Origin: a virus
Lineage: Duplodnaviria > Heunggongvirae > Uroviricota > Caudoviricetes
Virus record (IMG/VR): IMGVR_UViG_3300043464_002177
Length of the DNA: 64,000 nucleotides
Reading direction: 5' to 3' (one strand)
Part shown: positions 55 through 42,533 of the stretch, piece by piece
How the letters are laid out: each line of letters opens with the position of its first letter
How positions within the stretch are numbered: the first letter of the stretch is position 1
The notes under the pieces: model-generated
Databases searched by the model: none
What the model was told of the DNA's origin: nothing
What the model saw: only the letters and a program-made list of their open reading frames with translations
Program-made: the position numbers and the translations under genes

Positions 55-253
55 AAATTATTAACCTAATCAATTTTATTATGAAAGAGTTTGTAGGAAT
101 GTTCAAGGAATTATATTACGGCACAATAGATATGTGGAAAAATGACAGAAAGGAATTCTGGGACACTTATCTGGGGTTTGCTTTGGTGATCTTTGTTTTC
201 TGGTTTTCGTTCTGGGTTGTATTACCTATTGTTGAAAATTAAAATAAATCTAT

Positions 254-490
254 ATGAAATTATCTGGCAGATATGTTGAGGCTATCAAGGTAGCGAATGT
301 ACCAGAAGGTATGCGTGGCTTTATTGAATACACGGACTTAGCTGGTAAGTTGTATGTGAAGTGGAATAATGGGACAGAAGGTGTCATACAAGAACGGGGT
401 GAAACTTATAGAATTATTGAAGTAAGAAGTAAGCCAAAAAAATTATTTTGGAATTTAAAAAGAATAATCTTATTTTTGCTACGCAAATAA
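254..490 (+). CDS. hypothetical protein (early-array small ORF)
   Basis: Six-frame ORF, first of a tightly packed co-directional array; no motif recognised. Confidence 0.5.
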   Translation: MKLSGRYVEAIKVANVPEGMRGFIEYTDLAGKLYVKWNNGTEGVIQERGETYRIIEVRSKPKKLFWNLKRIILFLLRK

Positions 491-499
491 AAACTATAT
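485..499 (+). promoter_or_regulatory. AAATAAAA(A)CTAT upstream motif copy
   Basis: caaataaaaactatatctatATG 5 nt upstream of ATG 504. Confidence 0.45.
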
Positions 500-503
500 C
501 TAT

Positions 504-719
504 ATGAATTTAAAAAAGCACATTTGGGAGGGTTGGCTCGTTCAAGATTTTATTGATAATTTAGAGCCGTTGTTTGATAACATTATGCGTAACGATTCTT
601 GGCAGAAACCTTTCAAGGATAAAGCAGAATTAATGCAATGGTGCAAGGACAATCAGCCGTATTACAAAAAGCACATACCCGAAGTTTACAACTACTTTCT
701 AAATAAATCTAATCTTTAA
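504..719 (+). CDS. hypothetical protein
   Basis: ORF in array; motif upstream. Confidence 0.5.
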   Translation: MNLKKHIWEGWLVQDFIDNLEPLFDNIMRNDSWQKPFKDKAELMQWCKDNQPYYKKHIPEVYNYFLNKSNL

Positions 720-735
720 CTAAACCCTTTTTAAA

Positions 736-1161
736 ATGAAAGCAAACCCAATTTTCGAAGGTATCCGTGACTCATACATAAAGCACGGACTCGAAACCGA
801 AAGAGCAGTATTCAGTATGTTAATGACCAAAGCAGTCAAGAACAAAATTAACTTTGAGGAATTTAATCTTGGTGACATTGTTAAAACTATTCACCAAACA
901 AGTATGGGAAATTCTTGTGTTAATTTTGGTGATGGTGAATTGTTATTTCAAGACAATTATGAAGTGCATTCGGTTAGTGCAAGTAGAGATGAAGATGGTG
1001 ACCCCGAAGTGTTTATTCACATGCTTGATGTTAATACAATGGAAACTCATTCAGTTCGCATTTATCAGTTCCCACAAATTGATTGGCTATTGCAGATTGT
1101 GAAAGCCGTGAATGACAAATGTGAATTAACCTTTAATATTGATGAAGATGACGAAGATTAA
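736..1161 (+). CDS. hypothetical protein
   Basis: ORF in array; acidic C-terminus DEDDED. Confidence 0.5.
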   Translation: MKANPIFEGIRDSYIKHGLETERAVFSMLMTKAVKNKINFEEFNLGDIVKTIHQTSMGNSCVNFGDGELLFQDNYEVHSVSASRDEDGDPEVFIHMLDVNTMETHSVRIYQFPQIDWLLQIVKAVNDKCELTFNIDEDDED

Positions 1162-1474
1162 AATTTTATCAGCGAGTTCGCCCGAGGGGTTGAATAGCAA
1201 AGTTCAAGATATGATTGCTGAGGGTTGGGAGCCAATGGGTTCCCACTCAGCAGTTAACATTCATTCGCAAAATCGTTATTCGGGTACTCAGCACATGGAT
1301 ACAATCCATAAGACCGAGTATTCAATAACAATGAAACTGATCAGCCTTGATCCGAAGATCGAAACCGGAGTGTATTGGTATGAAGATGAGGAGACCGGCA
1401 GAAAAGTGTATGACGAGGAGGAGATGCGTGATGAATTCGAAAAGAAGTTATTGGAATTAATAAACAATTCTTAA
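1139..1474 (+). CDS. hypothetical protein
   Basis: ORF in array, 23-nt overlap with upstream ORF. Confidence 0.45.
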   Translation: MMKMTKIKILSASSPEGLNSKVQDMIAEGWEPMGSHSAVNIHSQNRYSGTQHMDTIHKTEYSITMKLISLDPKIETGVYWYEDEETGRKVYDEEEMRDEFEKKLLELINNS

Positions 1475-1476
1475 TT

Positions 1477-1490
1477 AAATAAAACTATTT
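1477..1490 (+). promoter_or_regulatory. AAATAAAACTATTT motif copy
   Basis: aaataaaactatttcaattATG; overlaps stop of previous ORF, 5 nt before ATG 1496. Confidence 0.5.
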
Positions 1491-1495
1491 CAATT

Positions 1496-1771
1496 ATGAT
1501 AGATTTAGAATTAATCTTGCAGAGAGCCGAAGAAGAAAACTCAATTATCATTCATGGATTTGATGGTAGGGTTGATGGCTATAATGATGCTATTGTAGGT
1601 ATTACAAGAGATGGTCAATTAGTATATTCAATAGAAAAACTAATTGAACTTTGCGCCGAGCAAGGCGAGATGGAAGAAATTGATGCGATCGAATGGTTAG
1701 AGTTCAATACATTCGGTGCATACCTTGGTGAGAAGACACCAATTTACATTTACACAAACACTGGTTATTAA
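1496..1771 (+). CDS. hypothetical protein
   Basis: ORF in array. Confidence 0.5.
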   Translation: MIDLELILQRAEEENSIIIHGFDGRVDGYNDAIVGITRDGQLVYSIEKLIELCAEQGEMEEIDAIEWLEFNTFGAYLGEKTPIYIYTNTGY

Positions 1772-1783
1772 ATTCAAATTATT

Positions 1784-1996
1784 ATGGAAAAAAGATTCAC
1801 ATTAGAGTATAGCGAAGAACAAGGAGCGTTTCACATGAATGATGGGACACATTCCAAAAACACGAATGGTTATAGAACTATTCTGGATAATATCACGATC
1901 GAAGAATATAAAAGATTTACAGATCGGATAAGAAACAAAAAGATCACCTTTGCTTATCTGTTTAGAGAAGCTGAAAAATTCAATCTTGGAAAATAA
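1784..1996 (+). CDS. hypothetical protein
   Basis: ORF in array. Confidence 0.5.
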   Translation: MEKRFTLEYSEEQGAFHMNDGTHSKNTNGYRTILDNITIEEYKRFTDRIRNKKITFAYLFREAEKFNLGK

Positions 1997-2007
1997 AATA
2001 AAACTAT
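1996..2007 (+). promoter_or_regulatory. AAATAAAACTAT motif copy abutting ATG
   Basis: aaataaaataaaactatATG at 2008. Confidence 0.5.
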
Positions 2008-2352
2008 ATGAAAAGTTTAAAAGAAATAGCCGATCAATTAAAGATCGAAATTAAGCAAAAGAAAACAGATCTGGCACTCATTGAATGCGACCAGATCATA
2101 AATGATCTTAAAGTAGAAGATCTGGTATCTTGGATTAATGTACACCCAGTAACAAAGTATCATTATCTAAGTGTTACACCCAAAGTCCGATACCGCACAG
2201 ATGGGAAAAAGATCATGTCGAAGTGCCTGGGGAATGTGGAGAAGCTGGACGATAGGACGATCCTGGCGAAGAAGCGAGAAGCAATTATATTTTTTAAAAA
2301 TAAATGGGCGGAAATGAGAAATGATTTTGAGATATTAAAAAATAATTCTTAA
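2008..2352 (+). CDS. hypothetical protein
   Basis: ORF in array. Confidence 0.5.
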   Translation: MKSLKEIADQLKIEIKQKKTDLALIECDQIINDLKVEDLVSWINVHPVTKYHYLSVTPKVRYRTDGKKIMSKCLGNVEKLDDRTILAKKREAIIFFKNKWAEMRNDFEILKNNS

Positions 2353-2417
2353 TTTTGCGGACAGAATTTCACTTTACAGATTATTAACATTTTATTTTAC
2401 ATTTTAAATTTTAAATT

Positions 2418-2780
2418 ATGGCTACGATTATTAAATTAACTTACACCCAGACGGGTAAAGCAACATTGGTTAACATTGACCAGATGACAAGTGCATTTAG
2501 AATTTTTGAAAGAGGCACACGCAAGTATGCCACCAGAATTAATTTAGGTGGTGAACAATATGTGGTGGTAGATGAGGAACTACAAGAAATCCAGAAGTTA
2601 GCCCAGCAAGATTCTACGGGTGAATTTCAATCAACAGATTGGGTTCAAGTTGATGCTGGAATACCAGAGGGTGATGACTTTGTAGATAGGCTGGAACAAG
2701 ATTACCAGCGTAATACCTATCGCCCACAACAACAGAGGAATTACCAGCCTCGCAATCACCACTATAATAATAGATATTAG
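2418..2780 (+). CDS. hypothetical protein with Q/N/R-rich C-terminus
   Basis: ORF in array; C-terminal QQQRNYQPRNHHYNNRY low-complexity tail. Confidence 0.5.
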   Translation: MATIIKLTYTQTGKATLVNIDQMTSAFRIFERGTRKYATRINLGGEQYVVVDEELQEIQKLAQQDSTGEFQSTDWVQVDAGIPEGDDFVDRLEQDYQRNTYRPQQQRNYQPRNHHYNNRY

Positions 2781-2810
2781 TTTTTGGTTAGTTTCCATAG
2801 GTGGTAAGTA

Positions 2811-2852
2811 TGAGTACGGGCTTCCCCCAGCCCGACTCTGCTTATTTTTTTG
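2811..2852 (+). terminator. Rho-independent terminator
   Basis: GAGTACGGGCT/AGCCCG-ACTC 10-bp stem (1-nt bulge), loop TCCCCC, then T7 run; 30 nt after stop of ORF 2418..2780. Confidence 0.5.
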
Positions 2853-2887
2853 TTCAGCCTTTATGGAAAAAGATTAAACAAAAACAC

Positions 2888-2914
2888 TTGTTTGTAAAAA
2901 ATTTTGTATATTTG
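2888..2914 (+). promoter_or_regulatory. Host-type Bacteroidetes sigma promoter (-33 TTG / -7 TATATTTG)
   Basis: TATATTTG matches TAnnTTTG -7 consensus at 2907-2914; upstream TTG at 2888-2890; precedes ATG 2949. Confidence 0.4.
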
Positions 2915-2948
2915 CAGACTTTTTAGTACAAACAAAAACATAAAAAGA

Positions 2949-3281
2949 ATGAAAAAACAAATCGAAGACAAAAATCTGATAGACATTAAAAGGTCTATTG
3001 GAAGTTTGCGAAAGTTGTTGGCTGATGATCCGAAGCGTATGACACATAAGATTAGGTTTAAGCGTTACGGTGCGAAATATATTATCAGCAACAATGACAA
3101 CGACCTATCTACTAAATTAGAAAAGTCGTTCAATTCATTTATGGGTAAGTTGAATATCCAGAGTAATGATAAAAAAGTTAAGGGTATTTGCTTTCTGGAT
3201 AAAAAATCTGACAACTTTAATATAGGTTATCAGAGAGACGGGGAAAGCGTATTACACCAGATTAAAGGTAAGTTGGGTTAG
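2949..3281 (+). CDS. hypothetical protein (start moved to internal ATG downstream of promoter)
   Basis: Track ORF 2904..3281; -7 box lies inside its first 15 codons so ATG at 2949 (MKKQIEDK) preferred. Confidence 0.5.
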   Translation: MKKQIEDKNLIDIKRSIGSLRKLLADDPKRMTHKIRFKRYGAKYIISNNDNDLSTKLEKSFNSFMGKLNIQSNDKKVKGICFLDKKSDNFNIGYQRDGESVLHQIKGKLG

Positions 3282-3301
3282 TAAAGGGTTAGTTGTTCCT
3301 T

Positions 3302-3340
3302 GAAGACGGGTTTGTCATTTCCCGTCTTCTTTTTTTTTTT
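3302..3340 (+). terminator. Rho-independent terminator
   Basis: GAAGACGGG / CCCGTCTTC 9-bp stem, 10-nt loop, followed by T11; 20 nt after stop of ORF ending 3281. Confidence 0.7.
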
Positions 3341-3359
3341 AAATTATTACAAAAAAAAT

Positions 3360-3390
3360 TTTGTGGTTTGGATATAGTTTTATATTTTTG
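3360..3390 (+). promoter_or_regulatory. Host-type Bacteroidetes promoter (-33 TTTG 3360-3363, -7 TATTTTTG 3383-3390)
   Basis: TTTG ... 19 nt ... TAnnTTTG; preceded by ttattacaaaaaaaattttgt block shared with promoters at 6459 and 6959. Confidence 0.5.
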
Positions 3391-3425
3391 CTAACGATTT
3401 CATTATTCACCTAAATTCATTCAAA

Positions 3426-3686
3426 ATGAAAAAGAAACAAAAACACACTCTGTTGAAGGGCGAAGGCACTAATCAACACACATTGTATGGCGAATTTGCT
3501 ATTGAGGAAGTAGTAGATTTTCCGAAGGTTCAAGTAACGAAGGATAGCCTTCTTAAACACGAACAACCAGATGGTTCATTCAGTAACGAACACAAAGCGT
3601 TGCAGATTGATAAGGGGTTGTGGTCTATGGGTAAGCAAGTTGAGTACAACCCATTTGATAAAAGAGTTACTCAAATCTGGGATTAA
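3426..3686 (+). CDS. hypothetical protein
   Basis: ORF downstream of host-type promoter. Confidence 0.5.
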   Translation: MKKKQKHTLLKGEGTNQHTLYGEFAIEEVVDFPKVQVTKDSLLKHEQPDGSFSNEHKALQIDKGLWSMGKQVEYNPFDKRVTQIWD

Positions 3687-3717
3687 TTTTATTTAAAACT
3701 AATTTAATTTATTTACT

Positions 3718-4122
3718 ATGGCTAATCCTTTAATCCATTCAAAATCCAGCGTGAAGCGTTGGGGTGGTAATGTGGAAGATTATCTTCCAATCCACGAACT
3801 GATTGATAGTCCGAAGGCAGTAATGAATAACAACTCTGCCAGAGCATTAACACATCATACTTGGTTTGCTTATACTATCATTCCAAAAATCTTCGGTTAC
3901 AATATCACCAATAGTGATGGTAAGAGTGTTGATACTATTGATATTGCTATGTTGCATATTGCAGAAGATTTCAGAATGAAGTTTGTGCCAACAGCACAAG
4001 ATTACTTACAGCACATTCAAGTCCAAGCGTGGTTCAATAATGGCGTGAAGGAATTAGATAGTCAAGAAGGAAAAGAAATTGCTCAAAACTTAATTAAAAA
4101 ATTACAATATGAAAACAACTGA
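3718..4122 (+). CDS. hypothetical protein
   Basis: ORF in array. Confidence 0.5.
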   Translation: MANPLIHSKSSVKRWGGNVEDYLPIHELIDSPKAVMNNNSARALTHHTWFAYTIIPKIFGYNITNSDGKSVDTIDIAMLHIAEDFRMKFVPTAQDYLQHIQVQAWFNNGVKELDSQEGKEIAQNLIKKLQYENN

Positions 4123-4795
4123 ATTAACAGACTTGCAACAAATAATTGCACTCTGGAAAGAGAAGGGCATCACAGAATGTTCAATGGAATTTAATTGTGG
4201 TGGCGACCAGATGAATGATTACACCTTCACATTCTATACGAAGGAAGGTGAGATTAAGTGTGATGAACTTGAAAGTTACTTTGAGAACGAAGTGTATAAT
4301 CAAGTTGAGTTCTATGTTAATAGTGATGGTCATTATATGGGAGAGGCTGGATATGTTTATATCAGACTTGATGAAGATGATGAAGATAATGTGGATTTCA
4401 CTTACACAAAAGATGCTGAAAGTGAATGGAATGAAACCTTTTCAGAAGTCGCTTATTTCCCTTTAACAGATGACTATAAGAAGTTCATTCAAGATAAGGT
4501 TCAGAGTATTGTAGGTGGTGAAGATGGTGAAGCAATTAACTACAAAGGTGATTGCATCTTGACTGATGAAGAAGAAGCAATCGCAGATAACCTTCAAAGT
4601 GATTTGAGAGATTTTGCTTGTGATGTAGAAATATCTGATGCAGAAGGGGAAGCAGGTGATTGGTTTAGATTTAGTACCAATAATCCAGAAGATGATGATG
4701 CAGATGATGATACTATGGGGGTTACAATCACAGATGATGGGTTGAAGGTTAGCGTTGAAAAAACCTATTATGTTTACAAACCAAGCGAAGATTAA
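4109..4795 (+). CDS. hypothetical highly acidic protein
   Basis: ORF in array; D/E-rich throughout (DEDDEDN, EDDDADDD). Confidence 0.5.
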   Translation: MKTTELTDLQQIIALWKEKGITECSMEFNCGGDQMNDYTFTFYTKEGEIKCDELESYFENEVYNQVEFYVNSDGHYMGEAGYVYIRLDEDDEDNVDFTYTKDAESEWNETFSEVAYFPLTDDYKKFIQDKVQSIVGGEDGEAINYKGDCILTDEEEAIADNLQSDLRDFACDVEISDAEGEAGDWFRFSTNNPEDDDADDDTMGVTITDDGLKVSVEKTYYVYKPSED

Positions 4796-4818
4796 AAAAC
4801 ATTTAAAACTAATTCATT

Positions 4819-5499
4819 ATGAAGATTATCATTAACAATGTAGCGTTTGACTACAATATCGGTTGCAGACTTTTAAAGTCAAAGTATAAGAACGAACCAT
4901 TCGGAAATCTTGATGACATCTGGGAACATATTGTTCCTATGACATTCAAAGAAATCGCCACAGAGATTAAGAATTTAGAGCAGAGAAGAATAGCGATTGG
5001 TTGTCTGGGATTAGACCAGATAGTTAAAGAAGTTAATCCAACTCTGATGAGGTCTGAAACATTGAAGAAGCAGACCACTTGGGTTACACCAGAAGGTGAA
5101 TTGGAAACAAAGCAATTCAATGATACCTACGAACTATGGAAGGTTGAAGGTAATGCTTGGAGTGAAGGTACAGATGCCAGATGGGGTGCAGATGATGTCT
5201 TTTATATTAGATGTAAGGACACATCTACCGACAGAGAGTATCTTATCTGGGTTGATGCAGTAGATGTCGCCAGAACCAATAATAAAGATGGTTGGTTCAG
5301 TTCTGACAAGAGTAAGCACATCACACCAATTCAAGCGATTGCTTGGACAATCCAGACAGATATTGAGAAGGGTGGAATTGATAAGATTGTTAGACAGGGT
5401 GATTGCATCTTAATCAAGATGAAGAAAGATGCCACCAAAGGTAGAGTTAGACATCTGACAGAAGATGAATATAAAACTTTGTTGGTTGCAGAGAGTTAG
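4819..5499 (+). CDS. hypothetical protein
   Basis: ORF in array. Confidence 0.5.
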   Translation: MKIIINNVAFDYNIGCRLLKSKYKNEPFGNLDDIWEHIVPMTFKEIATEIKNLEQRRIAIGCLGLDQIVKEVNPTLMRSETLKKQTTWVTPEGELETKQFNDTYELWKVEGNAWSEGTDARWGADDVFYIRCKDTSTDREYLIWVDAVDVARTNNKDGWFSSDKSKHITPIQAIAWTIQTDIEKGGIDKIVRQGDCILIKMKKDATKGRVRHLTEDEYKTLLVAES

Positions 5500-5515
5500 T
5501 GCTGATTTGTTGAAT

Positions 5516-5547
5516 ACCCCCAGCAGAAATGTTGGGGGTTATTTTCT
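5516..5547 (+). terminator. Rho-independent terminator
   Basis: ACCCCCA / TGGGGGT stem with 10-nt loop followed by TATTTTCT; 17 nt after stop at 5499. Confidence 0.55.
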
Positions 5548-5566
5548 CACCTTTTAATTTTTTAAA

Positions 5567-5767
5567 ATGAAAGAAACTACTTTTTACATAGTTCAGTATA
5601 ATGACTGCTATGGTAATGGCGACCAGAAATCAAATGAAGTTCTGGTTAAAGATGAAGCAACCTTCTGGCGCTGGTTAAAGAAGCGTAATAAAGAAAGAAT
5701 CGCAGAAGGTGAGATGGAAGAACAAGTAGAAGAATTTGATTTAATCCCTATAACTTTATTTAAATGA
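5567..5767 (+). CDS. hypothetical protein
   Basis: ORF in array. Confidence 0.5.
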   Translation: MKETTFYIVQYNDCYGNGDQKSNEVLVKDEATFWRWLKKRNKERIAEGEMEEQVEEFDLIPITLFK

Positions 5768-6081
5768 GAAGAAACGCAAAGCGTGTCGCTGATCTATCCG
5801 ATCAGCTGGTCAGCGAGATCAACCAGGTGATAAGCACCAGATCAATCCAGGAAGTAGAATTCAATCGTCCGTTTACAATCCAGCTGGACGTTCAATCCAC
5901 CACAGGTGATTACTGGGACATAGAAGAAGGTTTATGTCGCAGGCTTACTGGTGAAGGTATTACAATCGTTCAATCCGATATTACAGGAGATGAGCAGGAG
6001 ATTAAACTGGAAGAACTTAGAGTTGTAGAACTTGCATTTATTCTGGACGAACTGGAAGAAGGGAATTACAAACCATTTTAA
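5764..6081 (+). CDS. hypothetical protein
   Basis: ORF in array; ATGA start/stop overlap with upstream ORF. Confidence 0.5.
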   Translation: MRRNAKRVADLSDQLVSEINQVISTRSIQEVEFNRPFTIQLDVQSTTGDYWDIEEGLCRRLTGEGITIVQSDITGDEQEIKLEELRVVELAFILDELEEGNYKPF

Positions 6082-6091
6082 ATAAAACTAT
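6080..6091 (+). promoter_or_regulatory. AAATAAAACTAT motif copy abutting ATG
   Basis: ttttaaataaaactatATG at 6092. Confidence 0.5.
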
Positions 6092-6352
6092 ATGGAAAAA
6101 TTCGAAAGAGATTCTAAGATTGCCAACTTCAATGAGAAGTTAAAAGCCATTCTAATTGAACTGGCAGTTAATGATGAGTTACCACTTGATATGACTACAC
6201 TGGACGCCAGTGTTTTTGATCCCTGTACTACACCAGTGATCGATACCCTGATCACATTACAGGAAGACGCTGAGTGGGCTCTTAATGGTAACTGGGACAG
6301 AAGCGATTCAGGTTTCGAAGCTCAGATTCAATTAATCAATAGTGTCTTATAG
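6092..6352 (+). CDS. hypothetical protein
   Basis: ORF in array. Confidence 0.5.
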   Translation: MEKFERDSKIANFNEKLKAILIELAVNDELPLDMTTLDASVFDPCTTPVIDTLITLQEDAEWALNGNWDRSDSGFEAQIQLINSVL

Positions 6353-6458
6353 TAAAAAAATTTAAGGAGCTTCGGACTGCTATGTATACGCAAGCTTTAA
6401 ACGTCACCAATCGAGCAGGGAATAGTGGTACCTTAATTTTTTATTACAGAAAAAATGT

Positions 6459-6488
6459 TTTGTATTTTAAATAACTTTATTACATTTG
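6459..6488 (+). promoter_or_regulatory. Host-type Bacteroidetes promoter (-33 TTTG 6459-6462; -7 TACATTTG 6481-6488)
   Basis: Perfect TAnnTTTG, 18-nt spacing; lies in a ~50-nt block (6441-6490) duplicated exactly 500 bp downstream. Confidence 0.55.
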
Positions 6489-6503
6489 TAAAAAAAACAC
6501 ACT

Positions 6504-6683
6504 ATGGTAAAAGTTTATTTTGAATTGGACAATGGCAAGTATGCCGAACTGGTCGCGATCTTTGATGATGAAGAGACGTATGACGTGTGCCTTCCCGCAC
6601 TGGAGAAGTTGTGTAAGAAACACAATTTTGATTTAGTAACAGAATCAGTAGATGAAGAAACAGAACTAAAAGAACTCGTATGA
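6504..6683 (+). CDS. hypothetical 59-aa protein (not in supplied track)
   Basis: ATG 6504 16 nt downstream of -7 box; translates MVKVYFELDNGKYAELVAIFDDEETYDVCLPALEKLCKKHNFDLVTESVDEETELKELV; stop TGA overlaps next ATG (gtATGAcg). Confidence 0.45.
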   Translation: MVKVYFELDNGKYAELVAIFDDEETYDVCLPALEKLCKKHNFDLVTESVDEETELKELV

Positions 6684-6940
6684 CGAAGACAGAATTTTAT
6701 CAGAAATATGGAGCGTATCTAGAAGCGGTTGCTGAGGATAATGCTGAGTATGGCGATCATTTGATTCTTCACCCAGAAGAAATTGATCTTGCTAGGAAGT
6801 ACCAGAAGGAAGGATTAAGTATTGTTTCTGTTCATGAGACGGAAGACGGCGAAGACTTCGTTGATATTTCGCAGCCATGTGATTTTGGTACGCAGCCATT
6901 TAAGTACGGGTATTACGCCGTAAACGTGGCGATTCATTAA
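6680..6940 (+). CDS. hypothetical protein
   Basis: ORF; ATGA overlap with upstream micro-gene suggests translational coupling; start embedded in CGTATGAC octamer. Confidence 0.5.
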   Translation: MTKTEFYQKYGAYLEAVAEDNAEYGDHLILHPEEIDLARKYQKEGLSIVSVHETEDGEDFVDISQPCDFGTQPFKYGYYAVNVAIH

Positions 6941-6958
6941 TTGTTACAAAAAAATATT

Positions 6959-6988
6959 TTTGTATTTTAAATAATTTTATTACTTTTG
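6959..6988 (+). promoter_or_regulatory. Host-type Bacteroidetes promoter (-33 TTTG 6959-6962; -7 TACTTTTG 6981-6988), duplicate of 6459-6488
   Basis: Same block as at 6441-6490, exactly 500 bp offset. Confidence 0.55.
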
Positions 6989-7009
6989 CTAAAACTTAAT
7001 AACGATCGT

Positions 7010-7816
7010 ATGACACAGTATCTTTCACAGTACAAAAACAAAGCCCAGGCTAAACGCGAAACTAGCTTGAGCTACCTAGGCGGAATTAACACCAGCTCAA
7101 AGATTGCAAAGGGGCTCAAGTATGACGAGATGACCTACATCCTGTACCTGGCACCTGCAGATCGCAGCGGCTATGAAGTTTGCCCAATGCGCAGCAAAGA
7201 ATGCACAGCAGCCTGCTTACATGAGAGCGGCCATAACAGGATTGACATCCATGAAAATGTTATCAATAAGGCCCGTATTACGAAGACGAAGTTATTCTTT
7301 GAGAATCGTCCTTTCTTCATGGGCTGGCTAGTGGATGAGATACGCAGCGCGCAGAGCAAAGCAATTGCTGCAGGCAAAAGCTTCAGCGTTCGTCTGAACG
7401 GTACTAGTGACCTAAGCCCTGAACAGTTTCACCTGGATGGGAAAAACATCCTGGAGATCTTTCCTGAAGTACAGTTCTATGATTATACCAAAGTATATAA
7501 CCGTACCAAGTTAACAAAGAAGTACAGCAACTATGACCTAACGTTTTCCTACAGTGGGACGAACGCTGTACAGTGCCAGGATGCATTGCTTCAGGATATC
7601 AGGGTCGCCGTAGTATTCGAAAAAGTTCCTGAACAGTTTTGGGGTAGACTAGTAATCGATGGAGATGCATACGATATGCGTTATCAGGACCAGGGCGGCG
7701 TGATCGTGGGCCTTAAGTATAAGAAGGTCCGCAATAAGCTTGAGCTCACTAAAAGCAAGTTCGTTATATCAGAAGAGAAACTTTTAAATAAATCTATTTC
7801 AAATGGAATATATTAA
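7010..7816 (+). CDS. hypothetical protein (269 aa)
   Basis: Track ORF 6986..7816 starts at TTG inside the -7 box; ATG at 7010 (MTQYLSQYK) inside CGTATGACACAG preferred. Confidence 0.5.
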   Translation: MTQYLSQYKNKAQAKRETSLSYLGGINTSSKIAKGLKYDEMTYILYLAPADRSGYEVCPMRSKECTAACLHESGHNRIDIHENVINKARITKTKLFFENRPFFMGWLVDEIRSAQSKAIAAGKSFSVRLNGTSDLSPEQFHLDGKNILEIFPEVQFYDYTKVYNRTKLTKKYSNYDLTFSYSGTNAVQCQDALLQDIRVAVVFEKVPEQFWGRLVIDGDAYDMRYQDQGGVIVGLKYKKVRNKLELTKSKFVISEEKLLNKSISNGIY

Positions 7817-8165
7817 ATATATCAACGACCTCAGGAATGAGCTACACAGAAAAATTGTATACCAGTCGATCTTAGCTCACCATCCAGGATCAGAATACGT
7901 CCTGGATCTTAACGAACCAGTCCAGGCGTTCTACACAGTGGCATCCAGGGAAACTGGTGAACCTAACGCAACCCAGGTTACAGTAACCGGGATTGATGGC
8001 TCAACCGGCGAGCTCATTGCAGCCACAGCGACCGGCATACGTAAGAAGTTATATTATAACGATCTTACTCTAGAACAGCTAGCCAGGTTATTACTTCACC
8101 TGGAAGCTAAATTATTCACAGTAACAGAATTTAAAAATGATAGAAACCTTATCACAGTTGGTTAG
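7803..8165 (+). CDS. hypothetical protein
   Basis: ORF in array. Confidence 0.5.
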   Translation: MEYIKYINDLRNELHRKIVYQSILAHHPGSEYVLDLNEPVQAFYTVASRETGEPNATQVTVTGIDGSTGELIAATATGIRKKLYYNDLTLEQLARLLLHLEAKLFTVTEFKNDRNLITVG

Positions 8166-8526
8166 AAAACCTAGCAAAGCTAGTGACCACGACCTTGAGC
8201 TTATTGGATGGAAAGAAAAACAAGCTAGAGTACTCAAGCACATGCAGCGAGATGAGAAGCTTATTCAGCTGCTAGAAGAATTCAAAGCCGTTAATGATCG
8301 TCTTAAGTTCTTTAGATCAAAGAACGACGTCAAAGTATACTTCTCGACTCAGGAGAAGGGCGGCGAAGAATATCTATACGCCCGCTGCTTCTTTAATATT
8401 GACGGGAAGCCCCGCGAGTTTAAGAAGTACCTGGGAATAGCGGATCAGGTGAATCCTGATCACCTGGACATGGGTGAGTTAAAAGAAATATTTTTAAGAA
8501 TGTTAAAAAATTATTTGGCATATTAA
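8137..8526 (+). CDS. hypothetical protein
   Basis: ORF in array. Confidence 0.45.
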   Translation: MIETLSQLVRKPSKASDHDLELIGWKEKQARVLKHMQRDEKLIQLLEEFKAVNDRLKFFRSKNDVKVYFSTQEKGGEEYLYARCFFNIDGKPREFKKYLGIADQVNPDHLDMGELKEIFLRMLKNYLAY

Positions 8527-8579
8527 AAATAAAATATAACTTGCCGGTGTATTACGAAAAAAGAGAAAACAACCAGTTC

Positions 8580-8594
8580 AAATAAAACTATTTT
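8580..8594 (+). promoter_or_regulatory. AAATAAAACTATTTT motif copy
   Basis: ttcaaataaaactattttaaatcATG at 8600. Confidence 0.5.
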
Positions 8595-8599
8595 AAATC

Positions 8600-8818
8600 A
8601 TGGAAGCATACAAGATTAAAGCGAATGAGGATTTTTGTGACCACCTGTTGCGTGTGATCAAAGATAACGGAACATGGGGATGGCCCGATCAACAGGTGAT
8701 CTTCGTAATACGCGGCGGGAAGATCCTAGGAGAAGCTGCGGCACTGGAAAAGGCTAAGACAATAGTTAGCCCTGAGTACTTCAAAAAAAATTTTGGAATA
8801 TTAAAAGAGAATTCTTAA
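8600..8818 (+). CDS. hypothetical protein
   Basis: ORF in array. Confidence 0.5.
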   Translation: MEAYKIKANEDFCDHLLRVIKDNGTWGWPDQQVIFVIRGGKILGEAAALEKAKTIVSPEYFKKNFGILKENS

Positions 8819-8838
8819 TTTTACAAAAAATAACAACT

Positions 8839-9084
8839 ATGGCAACGAAAATTCAAGACCCACAAACCTTTTGGAACAAGAAAGCTGCTGAAGTATTACG
8901 CGGCAAAACAATTGTAGAAGCTAGATACCTGAATGATAAGGAGATGGAGATGATGGGATGGTACAAACGCCCATTATGCTTTTTCCTGAACGACGGCACT
9001 TCATGCATTCTATCTATGGATGATGAAGGAAACGACGGCGGCGCATTATTCTATGGAAGTGACGGTGTATTACCTACCCTTTAA
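8839..9084 (+). CDS. hypothetical protein
   Basis: ORF in array. Confidence 0.5.
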   Translation: MATKIQDPQTFWNKKAAEVLRGKTIVEARYLNDKEMEMMGWYKRPLCFFLNDGTSCILSMDDEGNDGGALFYGSDGVLPTL

Positions 9085-9104
9085 TTTATATAAACTATAA
9101 TATC

Positions 9105-9302
9105 ATGATAACTCATCAAACAAAATTCGGAGAAGTTCAATTAAGAGTCGCAATGATTGACACTAATGGAACAGATTTATGTGAAGGCGTCGAAGTGAAA
9201 GTCGATGGCGAATTAATCGGAGAAGTTTTCGATGTTGATACAGATTACATTGAAGAAATGAGTGTTGAAGAAGTTGAAGAAATTGTAGAGAGTATTATCT
9301 AA
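9105..9302 (+). CDS. hypothetical acidic protein
   Basis: ORF in array. Confidence 0.45.
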   Translation: MITHQTKFGEVQLRVAMIDTNGTDLCEGVEVKVDGELIGEVFDVDTDYIEEMSVEEVEEIVESII

Positions 9303-9308
9303 CCTTTT

Positions 9309-9319
9309 AAATAAAACTA
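9309..9319 (+). promoter_or_regulatory. AAATAAAACTA motif copy
   Basis: ttttaaataaaactaactATG at 9323. Confidence 0.45.
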
Positions 9320-9322
9320 ACT

Positions 9323-9694
9323 ATGGCAAAGAAATTTAAAGTAAGGTTCAACCTGGGGAAAGGAAAGAACTACATGAAGTGGAAAGTAGAATCGGATGGA
9401 GAGTCCAACTACTACAGCCCTGAAGAATATAACCTGTATATGTACGGCTGCCAGTTGAAGAACCAGCGGGCTACTGCAAACAAGATTCACCAGGGAGCTA
9501 ACAAAGCTGTATGCGCCTGGATCTTGTGCGACACAATTCTGCTGGCACAAAACATCGAGCTTCCTGAAGCAAACACCAGGTTAACATATAACCCGCGTGT
9601 CAGGCCCAACTGGATGGCGGGAGATGTGCTCGCAGATAACGCTAACTTCGAAAGCATTTGGAGCGACGGTAGAAAATTATTCACAAATATTTAA
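9323..9694 (+). CDS. hypothetical protein
   Basis: ORF in array. Confidence 0.5.
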   Translation: MAKKFKVRFNLGKGKNYMKWKVESDGESNYYSPEEYNLYMYGCQLKNQRATANKIHQGANKAVCAWILCDTILLAQNIELPEANTRLTYNPRVRPNWMAGDVLADNANFESIWSDGRKLFTNI

Positions 9695-9706
9695 ATCTAT
9701 TTTAAA

Positions 9707-9997
9707 ATGGATGCATTAACTTTAAGTAATGAATATCTCGACAAGTATAAGTTCGAGATGTACACCAAAGCCGGCGATAACGCCTGCAGGTCAATTGTGC
9801 GCGCTGCGTGGAAAAAGCTGGACGGTACCAAAAGAGTTTCAGGGCAGGAGATGTTTGATTACGTAAAAGAAAGAATGGACGTAGTCAAAGCGAAACATCC
9901 TGAAGTATACGACACTGAGCCTAACTACCACATCTACCTGCTGGTGGCTAAGAAAGCAAAAGAGTATGAGTACGACTTCACACAATATTTTCAATAA
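9707..9997 (+). CDS. hypothetical protein
   Basis: ORF in array. Confidence 0.5.
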   Translation: MDALTLSNEYLDKYKFEMYTKAGDNACRSIVRAAWKKLDGTKRVSGQEMFDYVKERMDVVKAKHPEVYDTEPNYHIYLLVAKKAKEYEYDFTQYFQ

Positions 9998-10003
9998 GTT
10001 TCA

Positions 10004-10018
10004 AATAAAACTATTTTA
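10004..10018 (+). promoter_or_regulatory. AAATAAAACTATTTT motif copy
   Basis: gtttcaaataaaactattttaaaaATG at 10022. Confidence 0.5.
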
Positions 10019-10021
10019 AAA

Positions 10022-10273
10022 ATGGAAGCAGCATTAATAGGTGAAGAAACCATCCTGGTGTTTGTAATAATCACCCCGCCAGGAGAAGAACTGTTTGTTA
10101 CCTGGAACAAACATAACCACACTGAGAACAGACCGGACGCATTATCTTACATCCCGGAATATGTTGTTGAAGACAACTTAGAGAATGAACTTGAGCAGGG
10201 CTGTCAAGATTGGCTGGATGCTGTAGCTGCAGTAAAAGAATGGCAGGAGAAGCATAATGTGCAATTATATTAA
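10022..10273 (+). CDS. hypothetical protein
   Basis: ORF in array. Confidence 0.5.
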   Translation: MEAALIGEETILVFVIITPPGEELFVTWNKHNHTENRPDALSYIPEYVVEDNLENELEQGCQDWLDAVAAVKEWQEKHNVQLY

Positions 10274-10295
10274 AAACCAATTAAATTTAAATAAA

Positions 10296-10562
10296 ATGGA
10301 CAAAGTAGCAAAGTACAAGGCGGCTGCGCAAAGATGGGCAGCAAGATGGAAAGTTGAGGAGCAGCACGCAATAGATGTTGCAGCATCAATCTTGATGACT
10401 CGTGATAAAGTTCAAATGGGCGGAAGCTTCGCACAGGCGATTGTAGATAACAATCTACGTGAAGCGATCAACAGGGCGGATGATACCTGTATAAAGTATT
10501 TGAAGTTCTTCAGCATCATTAATTGGAACTGTGGTAGCTATGAAATCGAAAACGGACAGTAG
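10296..10562 (+). CDS. hypothetical protein (start at internal ATG after truncated motif)
   Basis: Track ORF 10257..10562; tttaaataaaATGgac at 10296 gives MDKVAKYK start without overlap. Confidence 0.45.
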   Translation: MDKVAKYKAAAQRWAARWKVEEQHAIDVAASILMTRDKVQMGGSFAQAIVDNNLREAINRADDTCIKYLKFFSIINWNCGSYEIENGQ

Positions 10563-10737
10563 GATGACCAGGGAGCAAATAGAAAGGAAGCTTGAGGATT
10601 TGAAATCACTTAAGCTTCCACAGCTAAACAAGAAAAGCAGAGCTCACCAGGACTGGAAGCGCGAGATGGAGAATCTCACCAGGCTTCTAGACACTGAGAT
10701 GGGTAAATTAAACAACCTTTTAAAAAGAACTATATGA
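10531..10737 (+). CDS. hypothetical protein (alternative non-overlapping start at 10564)
   Basis: ORF in array; ATG 10564 (MTREQIERK) lies just after upstream stop. Confidence 0.45.
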   Translation: MVAMKSKTDSRMTREQIERKLEDLKSLKLPQLNKKSRAHQDWKREMENLTRLLDTEMGKLNNLLKRTI

Positions 10738-11054
10738 AAGGAATATTCATAGACGCAAAGAATCGACAGGTAACTTATGTTAATACCAAAGCACAGCTGG
10801 AGGATCTTTACTTAATCCTTGGCGTCAATATGGTAGAGATCGGGAAGTACTGGGAGAACGGTGACACACTGTGGGTTGATGAGGAAGGATTAATTAACGG
10901 TACTGACTTCGGGTTCCAGGTTCAGGGATTAGAGTTCCTGGGCAATGGATTAATCCTGGGGACTAACAGGGAGAACCCTGAGGCTCACGACTCGGCCCTA
11001 ACAAAGATCGAGGACCTGAAGCTAAAGTTCTTTGAACTAGTCCCAGCAGTTTAA
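10734..11054 (+). CDS. hypothetical protein
   Basis: ORF in array; ATGA overlap. Confidence 0.5.
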   Translation: MKGIFIDAKNRQVTYVNTKAQLEDLYLILGVNMVEIGKYWENGDTLWVDEEGLINGTDFGFQVQGLEFLGNGLILGTNRENPEAHDSALTKIEDLKLKFFELVPAV

Positions 11055-11067
11055 AATAAAACTATTT
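11053..11067 (+). promoter_or_regulatory. AAAATAAAACTATTT motif copy
   Basis: tttaaaataaaactatttgaattATG at 11073. Confidence 0.5.
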
Positions 11068-11072
11068 GAATT

Positions 11073-11324
11073 ATGGAAAACAGTTACAGAGTTTTATGGG
11101 AGATAGATGTGGATGCGGCGGACGCTAAGGATGCTGCGCAACAGGCTTATGCTGCAATAGTGAGTGGTGCTGCACCGGTATTTGAAGTTCATCAATGGCG
11201 AGAACCGGAGATGATCCATATAGATCCGGTGGCCCTGGTGGATGTGAAGGACCTGTCGGCGGATCTACCTGTACCAGACAAAAGGATCATTACTGAAACC
11301 TATATGGGACCAGATATCATTTAA
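11073..11324 (+). CDS. hypothetical protein
   Basis: ORF in array. Confidence 0.5.
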   Translation: MENSYRVLWEIDVDAADAKDAAQQAYAAIVSGAAPVFEVHQWREPEMIHIDPVALVDVKDLSADLPVPDKRIITETYMGPDII

Positions 11325-11337
11325 AATAAAACTATTT
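11323..11337 (+). promoter_or_regulatory. AAAATAAAACTATTT motif copy
   Basis: tttaaaataaaactatttcaattATG at 11343; 23-mer nearly identical to copy at 11051. Confidence 0.5.
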
Positions 11338-11342
11338 CAATT

Positions 11343-11531
11343 ATGCACAAGACACTTGTTAAGATTTGGATCGATCAAAAGAAATCATCGATCAACTGGA
11401 AGATGAATATGGGATTGATCAATGTCAACTCAGCAACCGACCAGATCCAGCTCCTGGATGAATTGATCGACGACTTCAACCTGGAGGAGGTAACTGAAGA
11501 CCAGGATTACTTCATAGAAAAAAATTTTTGA
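11343..11531 (+). CDS. hypothetical protein
   Basis: ORF in array. Confidence 0.5.
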   Translation: MHKTLVKIWIDQKKSSINWKMNMGLINVNSATDQIQLLDELIDDFNLEEVTEDQDYFIEKNF

Positions 11532-11580
11532 TTCTAAGAAATAATTCTTAATTTTCCAGCTCAAACCAAAATTCATTCGT

Positions 11581-12213
11581 ATGACACAGACAATCAACCT
11601 AGGCCCAGAAGTTTATGTAACGGACCCTTGCTACAGTGTACCGACCTGGTGCCAAATCAAGCTTACCAATGTATTACCTGGTGAATGGATCGTATCAATG
11701 ATCTATGACGAAAAAGGCGGAAGCAACAGGAACGCTGAGCTCTACCTGGTCCACAAGGATTATCAGGGAAAGAATCTTCTGTATGACTGGGACTGGCTTG
11801 GGGACTTCGGCGTCGACAGCGGCCAGGCGGGAGTGTTTGATGCTGCGTCATACAGGAACGATGCATATGCTGCAGGTATTACAACACCTAAGTTAGATTT
11901 TGTGTATGAGTATTTTCAGGAAGGCGACATCTGGTATGAGAAGATGTGCAAGTTCACACTGGCGAACGACGGCTGGGGAGCATACGCAGCAGGTGCAGTA
12001 TCCAGCAGCGGCTATGGCGACGGAGAGTATCCAGTATACGGTGCTGAAGTTGACGGTAAGGTTGTAGCGCTTCAACTAGTGTTCATTGATCAATCCGCGG
12101 ATGACGATGAAGACCTGGAGGAGGACTGCTGCAATGAATGCGGGGCGGAACTAGAGTGGGACGGATCTTGTGACTACTGTGAGCACTTCAAGAATTCAAA
12201 GCTTGAAGATTAA
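11581..12213 (+). CDS. hypothetical protein with C-terminal Cys-rich zinc-ribbon-like motif
   Basis: ORF; start inside CGTATGACACAG; C-terminal CCNECGAELEWDGSCDYCEHF. Confidence 0.5.
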   Translation: MTQTINLGPEVYVTDPCYSVPTWCQIKLTNVLPGEWIVSMIYDEKGGSNRNAELYLVHKDYQGKNLLYDWDWLGDFGVDSGQAGVFDAASYRNDAYAAGITTPKLDFVYEYFQEGDIWYEKMCKFTLANDGWGAYAAGAVSSSGYGDGEYPVYGAEVDGKVVALQLVFIDQSADDDEDLEEDCCNECGAELEWDGSCDYCEHFKNSKLED

Positions 12214-12226
12214 ATAAAACTATTTC
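12213..12226 (+). promoter_or_regulatory. AAATAAAACTATTT motif copy
   Basis: gattaaataaaactatttcaaat; overlaps stop of previous ORF, 22 nt before ATG 12248. Confidence 0.45.
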
Positions 12227-12247
12227 AAATTCTTAAAACAAATCGAT

Positions 12248-12490
12248 ATGACTAAGAAGACTAAAGAACCGGTTCTAATCAAATGGGTTAAAATCGGAAT
12301 CAAGGAAAAGAAGAAGTGGGACACGAATCCGAAGTCCCCTCTAAATACAGCAGCGTGTCTCCAGTACCTGTACGACCGCTACGCTTACCAGATGTTTGAA
12401 GACGGGCTAACCCTCAACGACATTTTTTATGAAGCCAGGTTCTACTTCAAAAAGATCGGAATCACCGGCCGAGGTAAGAATCGCAAATAA
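12248..12490 (+). CDS. hypothetical basic protein
   Basis: ORF in array. Confidence 0.5.
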   Translation: MTKKTKEPVLIKWVKIGIKEKKKWDTNPKSPLNTAACLQYLYDRYAYQMFEDGLTLNDIFYEARFYFKKIGITGRGKNRK

Positions 12491-12499
12491 AACTATTTT
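12485..12499 (+). promoter_or_regulatory. AAATAAAACTATTTT motif copy
   Basis: Overlaps stop TAA 12488-12490; followed by weak hairpin TCCT-ccc-AGGA + T8 (12507-12525) then ATG 12569. Confidence 0.4.
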
Positions 12500-12568
12500 A
12501 AAATATTCCTCCCAGGATTTTTTTGTTCCAGTTTTTTTTCTTATATTATTTCATAAACAATAAATGTT

Positions 12569-12754
12569 ATGAAAAAGAACAGAACAACCAATTCCACCCC
12601 GCTAACTGTATACCAGGCAGTGGGACCAAACATCTACTTTGATGGTAACAGCTATCGAGTTCGTGTAATTGTTAAAGGTCAACGTTACTCTAAGAATCTA
12701 ACTTCGAAGAGAGCAGCTGTCCAATATCGCAATTCACTTCTTAAGACTGCTTAA
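12569..12754 (+). CDS. hypothetical protein
   Basis: Last ORF of the + array. Confidence 0.5.
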   Translation: MKKNRTTNSTPLTVYQAVGPNIYFDGNSYRVRVIVKGQRYSKNLTSKRAAVQYRNSLLKTA

Positions 12755-12781
12755 GAGATCAACAGTAGTAGGTTTGTTAAA

Positions 12782-12817
12782 TAAGGGAGAACATCAATAC
12801 GTCTCCCTTATTTTTTT
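12782..12817 (+). terminator. Rho-independent terminator ending the + strand array
   Basis: TAAGGGAGA / TCTCCCTTA 9-bp stem, 11-nt loop, followed by T7. Confidence 0.65.
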
Positions 12818-12836
12818 AACATTTAAATTCTGACGC

Positions 12837-12950
12837 ATGTATTACCTTCCAATCTGGCTCGAGTTCCTGATCTATGGAACAATTGTATTTTTCGCCATAG
12901 TAATGGTGAAGTACTGCTTCGATCTGATAAAGATCGTTAGGGAGAAGTAA
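12837..12950 (+). CDS. hypothetical 37-aa hydrophobic micro-protein (not in track)
   Basis: ATG 12837; MYYLPIWLEFLIYGTIVFFAIVMVKYCFDLIKIVREK; single predicted TM helix. Confidence 0.3.
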   Translation: MYYLPIWLEFLIYGTIVFFAIVMVKYCFDLIKIVREK

Positions 12951-12998
12951 CCAGATCTCCCATGTATTACCTGGACACCTGGGCGGGACAAGGAAAAT

Positions 12999-13014
12999 GA
13001 AATAAAACTATTTT
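12999..13014 (+). promoter_or_regulatory. GAAATAAAACTATTTT motif copy with no ORF downstream
   Basis: Followed by GC-rich palindromic sequence (AGCCGGCT) and a CGTATGAC copy; candidate sRNA promoter. Confidence 0.4.
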
Positions 13015-13052
13015 ATTTTTTAACCAGCCGGCTAGCCTGGCTCCCGGACACG

Positions 13053-13060
13053 CGTATGAC
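13053..13060 (+). repeat. CGTATGAC octamer copy (non-coding)
   Basis: acgCGTATGACacc. Confidence 0.5.
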
Positions 13061-13115
13061 ACCCCACCGATGAGCCTCATATATATGGGGCCTTTTCTTT
13101 TCCTGGATGTCAAGA

Positions 13116-13142
13116 GGCGCCGAGTCCTTTATACGAGGCGCC
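13116..13142. repeat. Hairpin family A copy 1: GGCGCC-[GAGTCCTTTATACGA]-GGCGCC
   Basis: 6-bp GC stem, 15-nt loop; loop near-identical to copy 2 while stem sequence differs but stays complementary. Confidence 0.55.
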
Positions 13143-13163
13143 GATCTATCCCACAAAAAATTG

Positions 13164-13171
13164 CGTATGAC
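13164..13171 (+). repeat. CGTATGAC octamer copy (non-coding)
   Basis: ttgCGTATGACatagg. Confidence 0.5.
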
Positions 13172-13206
13172 ATAGGGGACCCTCAGGGATCGCCACCTAA
13201 GATTTT

Positions 13207-13221
13207 AAATAAAACTATTTT
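13207..13221 (+). promoter_or_regulatory. AAATAAAACTATTTT motif copy with no ORF downstream
   Basis: Followed within 10 nt by CGTATGAC, then hairpin B1 (13255-13281); only an 11-codon ORF follows. Confidence 0.4.
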
Positions 13222-13229
13222 AAATTTCA

Positions 13230-13237: not shown

Positions 13238-13247
13238 GCCCGGCCCA

Positions 13248-17160: not shown

Positions 17161-17172
17161 ATAGTTTTATTT
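17161..17172 (-). promoter_or_regulatory. AAATAAAACTAT motif (reverse complement) abutting ATG of 16699..17160
   Basis: catATAGTTTTATTTtaaa on + strand. Confidence 0.45.
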
Positions 17173-33555: not shown

Positions 33556-33706
33556 ATTGTTTTATTTTAAAATTTACCCCATTGAGATTTATCTCTGTTT
33601 TGTTCTGCGATTTTAAATCCTAACCAAACATCTTTAAAAAATTGTTTGATTTTATTAAATGTTGATTTCATAATTTAATATAGTTAAAATTATTTAAAAT
33701 AAAAAA

Positions 33707-42521: not shown

Positions 42522-42533
42522 ATAGTTTTATTT
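42522..42533 (-). promoter_or_regulatory. AAATAAAACTAT motif (reverse complement) abutting a - strand ATG at 42521
   Basis: catATAGTTTTATTTtattg on + strand. Confidence 0.4.

Follow-up and report, generated by a model that had tools for sequence, protein, structure and literature searches.

In a 64,000-nt stretch of DNA from a tailed phage (Caudoviricetes; IMG/VR record IMGVR_UViG_3300043464_002177), hereafter the window, a strict sequence element built around the 12-mer AAATAAAACTAT sits directly before the start codons of many small genes. We consider it most likely, with confidence a little short of even, that the element is a phage-specific promoter recognized at the DNA level; its anatomy, strictness, family specificity, conservation and positions can be read from the DNA directly. 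The window comes from the genome of a large phage with a Bacteroidota host; its right end falls in a 169,422-bp metagenome contig, as established by an exact protein match, and one of its proteins has homologs at 45% identity in T4-like cyanophages. One early protein was found in 122 blocks of the collection, indicating that the phage is abundant, while no near-identity DNA match to the early region was found among deposited phage genomes and no Rfam family was found in the whole window. Positions 1-13,300 form the larger part of a plus-strand cluster of ~45 small genes, mostly without known function, that starts 5´ of the window at a DUF932 gene. The section of this early cluster rich in the motif (6000-14000) has a GC content of 0.40-0.43, compared with ~0.30 in the remaining window.

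A strict element in one family of Bacteroidota phages

The 12-mer occurs 14 times exactly in the window and 22 times with at most one mismatch (3.1 expected), and it tops the over-representation among 9-12-mers. The longer form AAATAAAACTATTT is found 10 times exactly against 0.02 expected, and 28 times with up to two mismatches against 7.2 expected. These counts confirm that the near-identical element noticed before many ATGs in an earlier inspection of the letters alone (the sequence-only reading) is real. Eleven of the exact 12-mers lie on the plus strand (1477-13218), two are on the minus strand and directly adjoin the ATGs at 17160 and 42521, and one is antisense within a gene. All gene-proximal exact copies share the orientation of their gene, and 10 of the 14 are no more than 30 nt upstream of a co-oriented ATG. 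The element is not equally frequent in coding sequence: only two exact copies fall in called gene bodies, which are crude calls based on open reading frames (ORFs), namely the antisense copy at 47782 and the copy at 13207, over which a doubtful ORF is called. Since ~11-14 of 37 early-cluster genes carry a copy, the suggestion that each small gene may have its own is too broad and holds for this share of the cluster, not for the remainder.

Relatives were collected by scanning IMG/VR, JGI metagenomes and GTDB genomes for two 12-mers 250-280 nt apart; a scan of IMG/VR with a single 14-mer was uninformative, being swamped by lone chance matches, and the two-copy pattern was used instead. Contigs homologous to the early region are 71-96% identical at the nucleotide level where alignable and carry many copies, with a maximum of 16 exact copies in 14 kb (contig L271). 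L001, the closest relative in IMG/VR (81% identity in one protein), has nine copies in 19 kb at matching positions, some of them before non-orthologous genes. In ~209 kb of family DNA, we counted 127 exact co-oriented copies, 30 copies with one mismatch and three exact reverse copies, a specificity far sharper than any ribosome-type preference. The comparison with related phages proposed in the sequence-only reading thus places the element in one family of large (~170 kb) uncultured Bacteroidota phages, to which it is specific. The motif is absent from a sister lineage (L081-L083, one protein 63% identical), which instead has a repeated host-type cassette, TGTATATTTG-AATTCTAAATTAAAYCAC-ATG, before most small early genes. 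In one ortholog pair, at gene 9323, the L083 ortholog has a host -7 box where the window, L001 and L271 have the motif.

The anatomy of the element was derived from 104 non-redundant family instances. It is a single block of ~18-23 bp, A-W-W-T-N-AAATAAAACTAT-W-T-N-A-A-A, with a weakly conserved 5´ flank (A-W-W-T-N), an invariant 12-mer and the 3´ flank W-T-N-A-A-A, and with these flanks it is longer than the sequence-only reading had drawn it. Conservation runs to +17, and there is neither information upstream of -6 nor a separate upstream box. Of these instances, 31 abut an ATG (0 nt) and 45 have it 5-8 nt on, with a further 12 at 13-32 nt and 15 without an ATG within 40 nt. In the 0-nt form, the ATG itself satisfies W-T-N and the second codon begins RAA. 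Distances of 1-4 nt are nearly absent because the 3´ extension is conserved, the start codon lying as near as the block permits. Read directly, the core is also an imperfect palindrome, AAATA-AAAC-TATTT.

Between strains, 2.6% of positions vary, but no single-nucleotide polymorphism falls in any of the 13 strong copies, compared with ~5.8 expected. Gene content between the copies changes fast among relatives. Homology blocks shared by the window and L001 begin exactly at the copies at 6080, 11054 and 12485, so the motif marks mosaic boundaries. Strain differences at two sites were also seen: the gain of a 43-amino acid (aa) membrane-like gene at window position 1984 (L091 2618-2755, L092 3864-4001), just 5´ of the motif at 1996, and an additional 86-aa gene between duplicated promoter-plus-motif cassettes in L092 (1000-1400).

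The element is unlike the promoters of the host. Host-type Bacteroidota promoters have TTTG at -33 and TAnnTTTG at -7 (PMC6847099), and matches to TTTG-N17-21-TAnnTTTG are present in the window at 447-478, 2326-2357, 3360-3390, 6459-6488 and 6959-6988. These five sites are separate from the motif and interleaved with it, as had been claimed. Host-type promoters resemble the element in that they also lie upstream of early genes in the cluster and are used by the sister lineage at equivalent positions, but the motif, unlike a host sigma-A promoter with its TAnnTTTG box and a TTTG ~19 nt further upstream, has neither of the two host boxes and no second upstream element. A copy at the DUF932 promoter of L088 and L092 lies upstream of and overlaps the predicted -7 box, and the corresponding copy is inverted in L001.

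Conserved copies unrelated to a start codon

A number of copies are kept where no start codon follows closely. Before the 80-aa gene (ATG 12248), all family members with this region retain the motif, while the leader of 17-27 nt is variable in both sequence and length. Likewise present in every family member with the region are the copy that precedes a 61-aa gene by ~70 nt and a non-coding copy after a GC hairpin. The copies at 12485, 13000 (previously given as 12999) and 13207, which the sequence-only reading had listed as further copies, do exist, yet none of them is followed by a start codon within 30 nt.

Another exact copy, with full flanks, lies at 47782..47793 (+), which the sequence-only reading had missed. 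It is antisense within the gene for a secreted NlpC/P60-type peptidase (47435-47917, minus strand), and no ORF follows it. The copy is kept in relatives whose peptidase protein is 81-89% identical, where nine codons are without synonymous change while neighbouring codons vary. At 28 nt, the longest stretch of the gene without variation is exactly the extended motif (four sequences, 30% of columns variable). More distant peptidase homologs have other residues at the site and no motif. Together, the conserved ATG-independent and antisense copies point to a sequence-specific function that is independent of the gene.

Downstream of the non-coding copies, predicted folding was no better than for shuffled sequences, save for one terminator-like hairpin, which leaves the idea of small RNAs unsupported. 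A GTATGAC box lies 11-12 nt downstream of the copy at 13207 in all family members with the region. Arrays of such boxes occupy the GC-rich non-coding DNA with which the early cluster ends, and the sister lineage has the box as well; they occur in the window at 13053, 13165, 13230, 13343 (reverse complement), 6678, 7006 and 11577, in L001 at 14633-14908, and many times in L083. In several genes GTATGAC is part of a start context, TCGTATGACA. A start of a small conserved ORF at GTATGAC was considered and rejected, as the ORFs differ or run for 2-11 codons in relatives; possible roles are an operator, an origin or an RNA decoy.

A candidate phage promoter and its rivals

The element is conserved, co-oriented upstream of a subset of genes, unlike the host consensus and kept among related phages, the properties by which a phage promoter class is recognized. 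The strict 12-mer with its flanks, the family specificity, the replacement of a host promoter, and the ATG-independent and antisense copies all argue for a specific reader that does not need a start codon, and for such a reader a phage-specific promoter is the most economical explanation. The promoter class suggested in the sequence-only reading is thereby strengthened as regards family specificity, distinctness from host promoters and start codon-free copies, while promoter activity itself is a prediction from sequence. A second, phage-directed class of promoters would then work beside the host-type promoters of the early cluster, with the block being read very strictly by a phage-encoded or phage-modified transcription factor or polymerase. 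Transcription would be predicted to begin at or near the 3´ part of the block, such that the start codon would lie either within it, giving leaderless or nearly leaderless mRNAs, or 5-8 nt past the 12-mer. Copies without a start codon might give rise to non-coding transcripts where the early cluster ends, and the copy at 47782 might drive an antisense RNA over the 5´ end of the peptidase gene. A bolder and more detailed proposal, which we hold to be rather unlikely, is that a new polymerase or sigma-like factor reads an 18-23 bp promoter containing the start codon, yielding leaderless early or middle mRNAs, an antisense RNA that restrains the peptidase gene, and the GTATGAC non-coding RNAs. 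Two other placements of the motif relative to a start were tried and rejected: as a -30 element like the MotA box, and with TATTTYAA as a host -7 box, since in both geometries the start would lie within coding sequence.

That promoters abutting start codons probably exist in this phage is suggested by a second start-proximal motif, ATATTTAT(A). All 11 of 11 copies are intergenic, and 10 are co-oriented and 4-25 nt (mostly 4-6 nt) before an ATG. The copy upstream of gene 28023-29264 and one L001 copy are squeezed between a terminator hairpin with a T-run and an ATG ~20 nt apart. This motif likely is another phage promoter class giving leaderless or near-leaderless mRNAs.

Several observations weigh against a promoter as the identity of the main element. 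Altogether 76 of the 104 copies are at 0 or 5-8 nt from an ATG, and orthologous genes swap between these two registers; with one fixed start site, the registers would yield leaderless mRNAs and mRNAs with a ~7-nt leader, which would be awkward for translation. Searches with PHROGs and Pfam, together with inspection of the large unknown proteins, turned up neither an RNA polymerase nor a sigma factor among ~80 window proteins, with ~85 kb of the ~169-kb genome covered. Three copies lie just past a predicted host-type start, taken as 4-5 nt after the -7 box following PMC6847099 (window 447-497, L088 4283-4335 and L092 1040-1110), and would thus be transcribed as 5´ untranslated region (UTR). A hairpin with a T-run is found within 60 nt upstream of one copy among the 104, most copies being within operon-like runs; by itself, this terminator test favours neither a promoter nor a signal in the mRNA. 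Finally, AAATAAAACT-ATG precedes genes of hosts (Flavobacterium, Prevotellaceae and Rufibacter, genome contigs L362, L367, L371, L379 and L388) and of unrelated phages (viral contigs L234, L239, L241, L281, L301 and L351), and is found even in a Rufibacter of 54% GC. It appears to be a translation-start context that the phylum favours. In the generic form, the 12-mer runs into the ATG, whose A and T supply its final two bases; this is a -2 register that the phage family never uses.

Much of this would be explained if the element acted in the mRNA, in the translation-initiation region (TIR) of early cistrons, with the A-rich block and additional bases read by a phage RNA-binding regulator or endoribonuclease. 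Such a factor could switch the translation of early genes as a group, by analogy with T4 RegA and RegB. We regard this explanation as the main rival, somewhat less probable than a promoter. Window genes have no Shine-Dalgarno sequences and are enriched for A at -13 to -10 with an A at -3, a start pattern also described for Flavobacterium johnsoniae (PMC6847099) and reported for Bacteroides and Flavobacterium (PMC6028130). The element resembles the A-rich, non-Shine-Dalgarno TIR of these bacteria (PMC6847099; PMC6028130) in its A-rich core, in the AAATAAAACT-ATG of the hosts, and in the placement of its A-run, at about -15 to -10 in both registers, in agreement with the A-rich block at about -14 to -11. 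An mRNA element would also fit the copies in predicted 5´ UTRs, the position of most copies before internal cistrons with no terminator ahead, and the confinement of the motif mostly to one temporal-looking gene cluster. Given the likeness of the core to the generic start context, and with three copies predicted to be in the mRNA, the combined promoter and translation signal that the sequence-only reading had offered is kept as an alternative alongside the promoter. On the other hand, the A-rich TIR is degenerate and found only beside starts, whereas the element is strict, has conserved C and T positions and other registers, and includes start-distant copies. An mRNA element would not account for the conserved copies at 12485, 13000 and 13207, which lack a nearby start codon, for the copy at 47782, where the sense mRNA bears only the complement, or for the motif of the 80-aa gene, which at 17-27 nt from the ATG is too distant for an A-rich block and is conserved nonetheless. 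The DUF932 copy of L088 and L092, being upstream of the -7 box, would be outside that mRNA, and its counterpart in L001 is inverted. The split between 127 exact and 30 one-mismatch copies is much sharper than the preferences of ribosomes or S1, and proteins seldom recognize 12 or more bases of linear RNA so strictly. A simpler version, in which the generic start context has spread by duplication or recombination without a phage-specific factor, appears quite improbable. It would be in line with similar A-rich sequences, with ACT-ATG at their end, that host genomes and unrelated phages contain, and with the weak variants that are common before other window genes, but it would not predict that the full 12-mer and flanks, non-A positions included, are kept across 71-96% nucleotide identity, that the host register is never used, that copies without start codons are conserved, or that the sister lineage is wholly without the motif.

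The very sharp recognition and the palindromic core might instead reflect an operator, a DNA site for a phage regulator that represses or activates neighbouring promoters or blocks elongation. This seems improbable. In favour of an operator is the copy that overlaps the host-type promoter ahead of the first early gene and that two relatives carry in either orientation. The conserved small gene at 12569-12754 beside a copy, for a 61-aa protein, might encode a DNA-binding protein, although searches of Pfam, PHROGs and the PDB returned nothing. A symmetric site, however, would not be expected to show 127 forward and three reverse copies, most copies have no recognizable adjacent promoter, and the ATG-abutting form disrupts the right half of the palindrome. 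A recombination junction at gene boundaries, serving the exchange of small early genes among related phages, has in its favour the homology blocks that begin exactly at copies, the strain with an extra gene between duplicated cassettes and the fast gene turnover between copies. We judge this very improbable as the function of the element, and probably a by-product: mosaic boundaries are to be expected wherever an intergenic signal is conserved, a stretch of 12-23 nt is short for exchange by homology, the strain insertion at 1984 is not flanked by the motif at both ends, and the strict orientation, the fixed relation to the ATG and the antisense and non-coding copies would be left unexplained.

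The promoter reading finds its nearest functional analogies in the leaderless promoters of Thermus phages and in the single-block promoters of phage polymerases, a likeness of function rather than evidence of membership in either group. In the Thermus phage phiYS40 (Sevostyanova et al. 2007, cited in PMC12340547), class-specific promoters stand against the start codon and give leaderless mRNAs. A -10-like element reportedly lies at one fixed distance from the ATG there, and the starts are reported to have been mapped. The element shares with these promoters a short phage-specific sequence right before many ATGs of one gene group that is unlike the two-box promoter of the host, but differs in being a far stricter block of 18-23 bp with two ATG registers, in a phage of a Bacteroidota host and known from sequence alone. 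The promoters of single-subunit polymerases of the T7, T3 and SP6 type are contiguous, nearly invariant blocks of ~20 bp, co-oriented and present in 10-20 copies per genome. Here too the block is single and strict, is co-oriented with the genes and has more exact than degenerate copies, yet only ACTAT is shared and no gene for such a polymerase was seen in the parts of the genome examined.

Likenesses to T4 are more limited. RegB of T4 cleaves Shine-Dalgarno sites at GGAG, the targets of RegA have a loose definition, and T4-type early cassettes, with a host-type promoter and a stem-loop, flank small ORFs and have been proposed as gene-exchange sites. All have in common with the element a short signal at many small early genes, possible group control and mosaic boundaries; in contrast to the cassettes, the element is accompanied by a hairpin at one of 104 copies and contains no host-type promoter. 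The T4 late promoter (TATAAATA, read by gp55 at ~10 bp before the transcription start) has at best a counterpart in TTTAAATA at the 5´ edge of the motif, whose most conserved part lies downstream of it, and no gp55 homolog was seen in the window. The crAss-like phage phi14:2 was rejected as a model, its early transcripts being without a common motif and its middle promoters being host-type.

Hardly any expression signals have been mapped in Bacteroidota phages, whose hosts have unusual promoters and do not use Shine-Dalgarno-based initiation, and a search of the accessible literature for the sequence of the element found no relevant paper. A strict family signal helps in the annotation of gene starts and temporal classes in abundant phages that have not been cultured. 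As DNA or RNA, the motif could be used as bait for the factor that reads it, and it may serve as an orthogonal expression part in Bacteroidota. If the promoter truly contains the start codon, leaderless expression would be a phage strategy in this phylum.

Individual copies and neighbouring features

The exact copies that the sequence-only reading had listed before the ATGs at 1496, 2008, 6092, 8600, 10022, 11073, 11343, 12248, 17160 (minus) and 42521 (minus) were all recovered. Those that abut the ATG (class I) include the copies at 1996..2007 (+, ATG 2008) and 6080..6091 (+, ATG 6092), the latter with an ortholog copy in L001 at 7233. The two minus-strand copies also abut their ATGs, at 17161..17172 before a pyrimidine-dimer-glycosylase-like gene (ATG 17160) and at 42522..42533 before a 50-aa gene (ATG 42521). 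At 1477..1488 (+), a class II copy, the conserved extension TTCAATT is followed by ATG 1496. The copy at 8580..8591 (+) lies in a 73-nt intergenic spacer, with TTTAAATC next and then ATG 8600, and the one at 10003..10014 (+) is followed by TTTAAAA and ATG 10022. At 11054..11065 (+), the copy overlaps the stop codon of the upstream gene and is followed by TTGAATT and ATG 11073; at 11324..11335 (+), TTCAATT and ATG 11343 follow, and the L001 ortholog has the ATG-abutting form. The 23-mers beginning at 11051 and 11321, described previously as almost identical, differ by one base.

Toward the end of the cluster, the copy at 12212..12223 (+) has the ATG of the 80-aa gene 24 nt on, and that at 12485..12496 (+) has the ATG of the 61-aa gene 72 nt on, a layout found family-wide. 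The copy at 13000..13011 (+) is non-coding, has no gene start and is kept in the family; it is followed by GC-rich DNA, a GTATGAC box and a hairpin (13074-13091) that resembles a terminator. The last plus-strand copy of the cluster, 13207..13218, is in non-coding, GC-rich DNA.

Among the variants, AAATAAATCTAT is a tolerated form; it abuts ATG 254 at 242..253 (+), where strain L091 has the canonical sequence, and the A7-to-T change is the commonest variant in relatives. The same form at 7786..7797 (+) is within the 3´ end of the upstream gene and is followed by TTCAA and ATG 7803, and AAATAAAACAAT at 33556..33567 (-) abuts ATG 33555. These one-mismatch copies before 254, 7803 and 33555 (minus) were absent from the sequence-only reading. 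It had counted the sites before 504 and 9323 as near-identical copies; both are present, the first as the insertion variant AAATAAAAACTAT at 485..497 (+), 6 nt past the -7 box of the host-type promoter at 447-478 and 6 nt before ATG 504, and the second as the one-mismatch form AAATAAAACTAA at 9309..9320 (+), with ATG 9323 2 nt on and canonical, ATG-abutting orthologs in L001 and L271. Its copies before 10296, 3718, 4819, 10734 and 51415 are weak and doubtful, and the variant at 3692 differs between strains.

The second motif, ATATTTAT(A), was located in the window at 16692, 19824, 20281, 20555, 20612, 25306, 29270, 34947, 38634 and 42133, in L001 at 13925 and in L085 at 5190; boxes like it precede tail-fibre-like genes in L085. 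A reused host-type cassette, TTTTGGATATTAAAAG...AATTCTTAATTTTG, was noted at 2326-2357, 8790-8820, 11525-11555 and 1466-1476 in the window and at 4262-4290 in L088. Part of it falls within the C-terminal codons of the gene before it, with the result that a number of proteins end in ...NNS or ...ENS. The sister-lineage contigs L081-L083 carry an inverted-repeat element, ATATTGTTTGGCAAA ... TTTGCCAAACAATAT, in 13-17 copies per 17-20 kb; its centre of ~30 nt often contains TTCGTATGACA (for example, L083 3070-3140, 6223-6290 and 10879-10935).

Beyond the early cluster, a non-coding block at 13448-13651, where the plus- and minus-strand gene clusters converge, is kept at 78% identity in L001 (15072-15275) and has no match in Rfam. 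Host-like genes are present further on, for thymidylate synthase (48588-49601), a glycosyltransferase cluster (51863-58764), a DUF401 transporter-like protein (59288-60295) and an outer-membrane TonB-dependent-receptor-like protein (60298-62073), the last of which was judged by eye and had no family match. A 91-nt tRNA-Arg(CCG) is predicted at 62106-62196, directly 5´ of the receptor-like gene.

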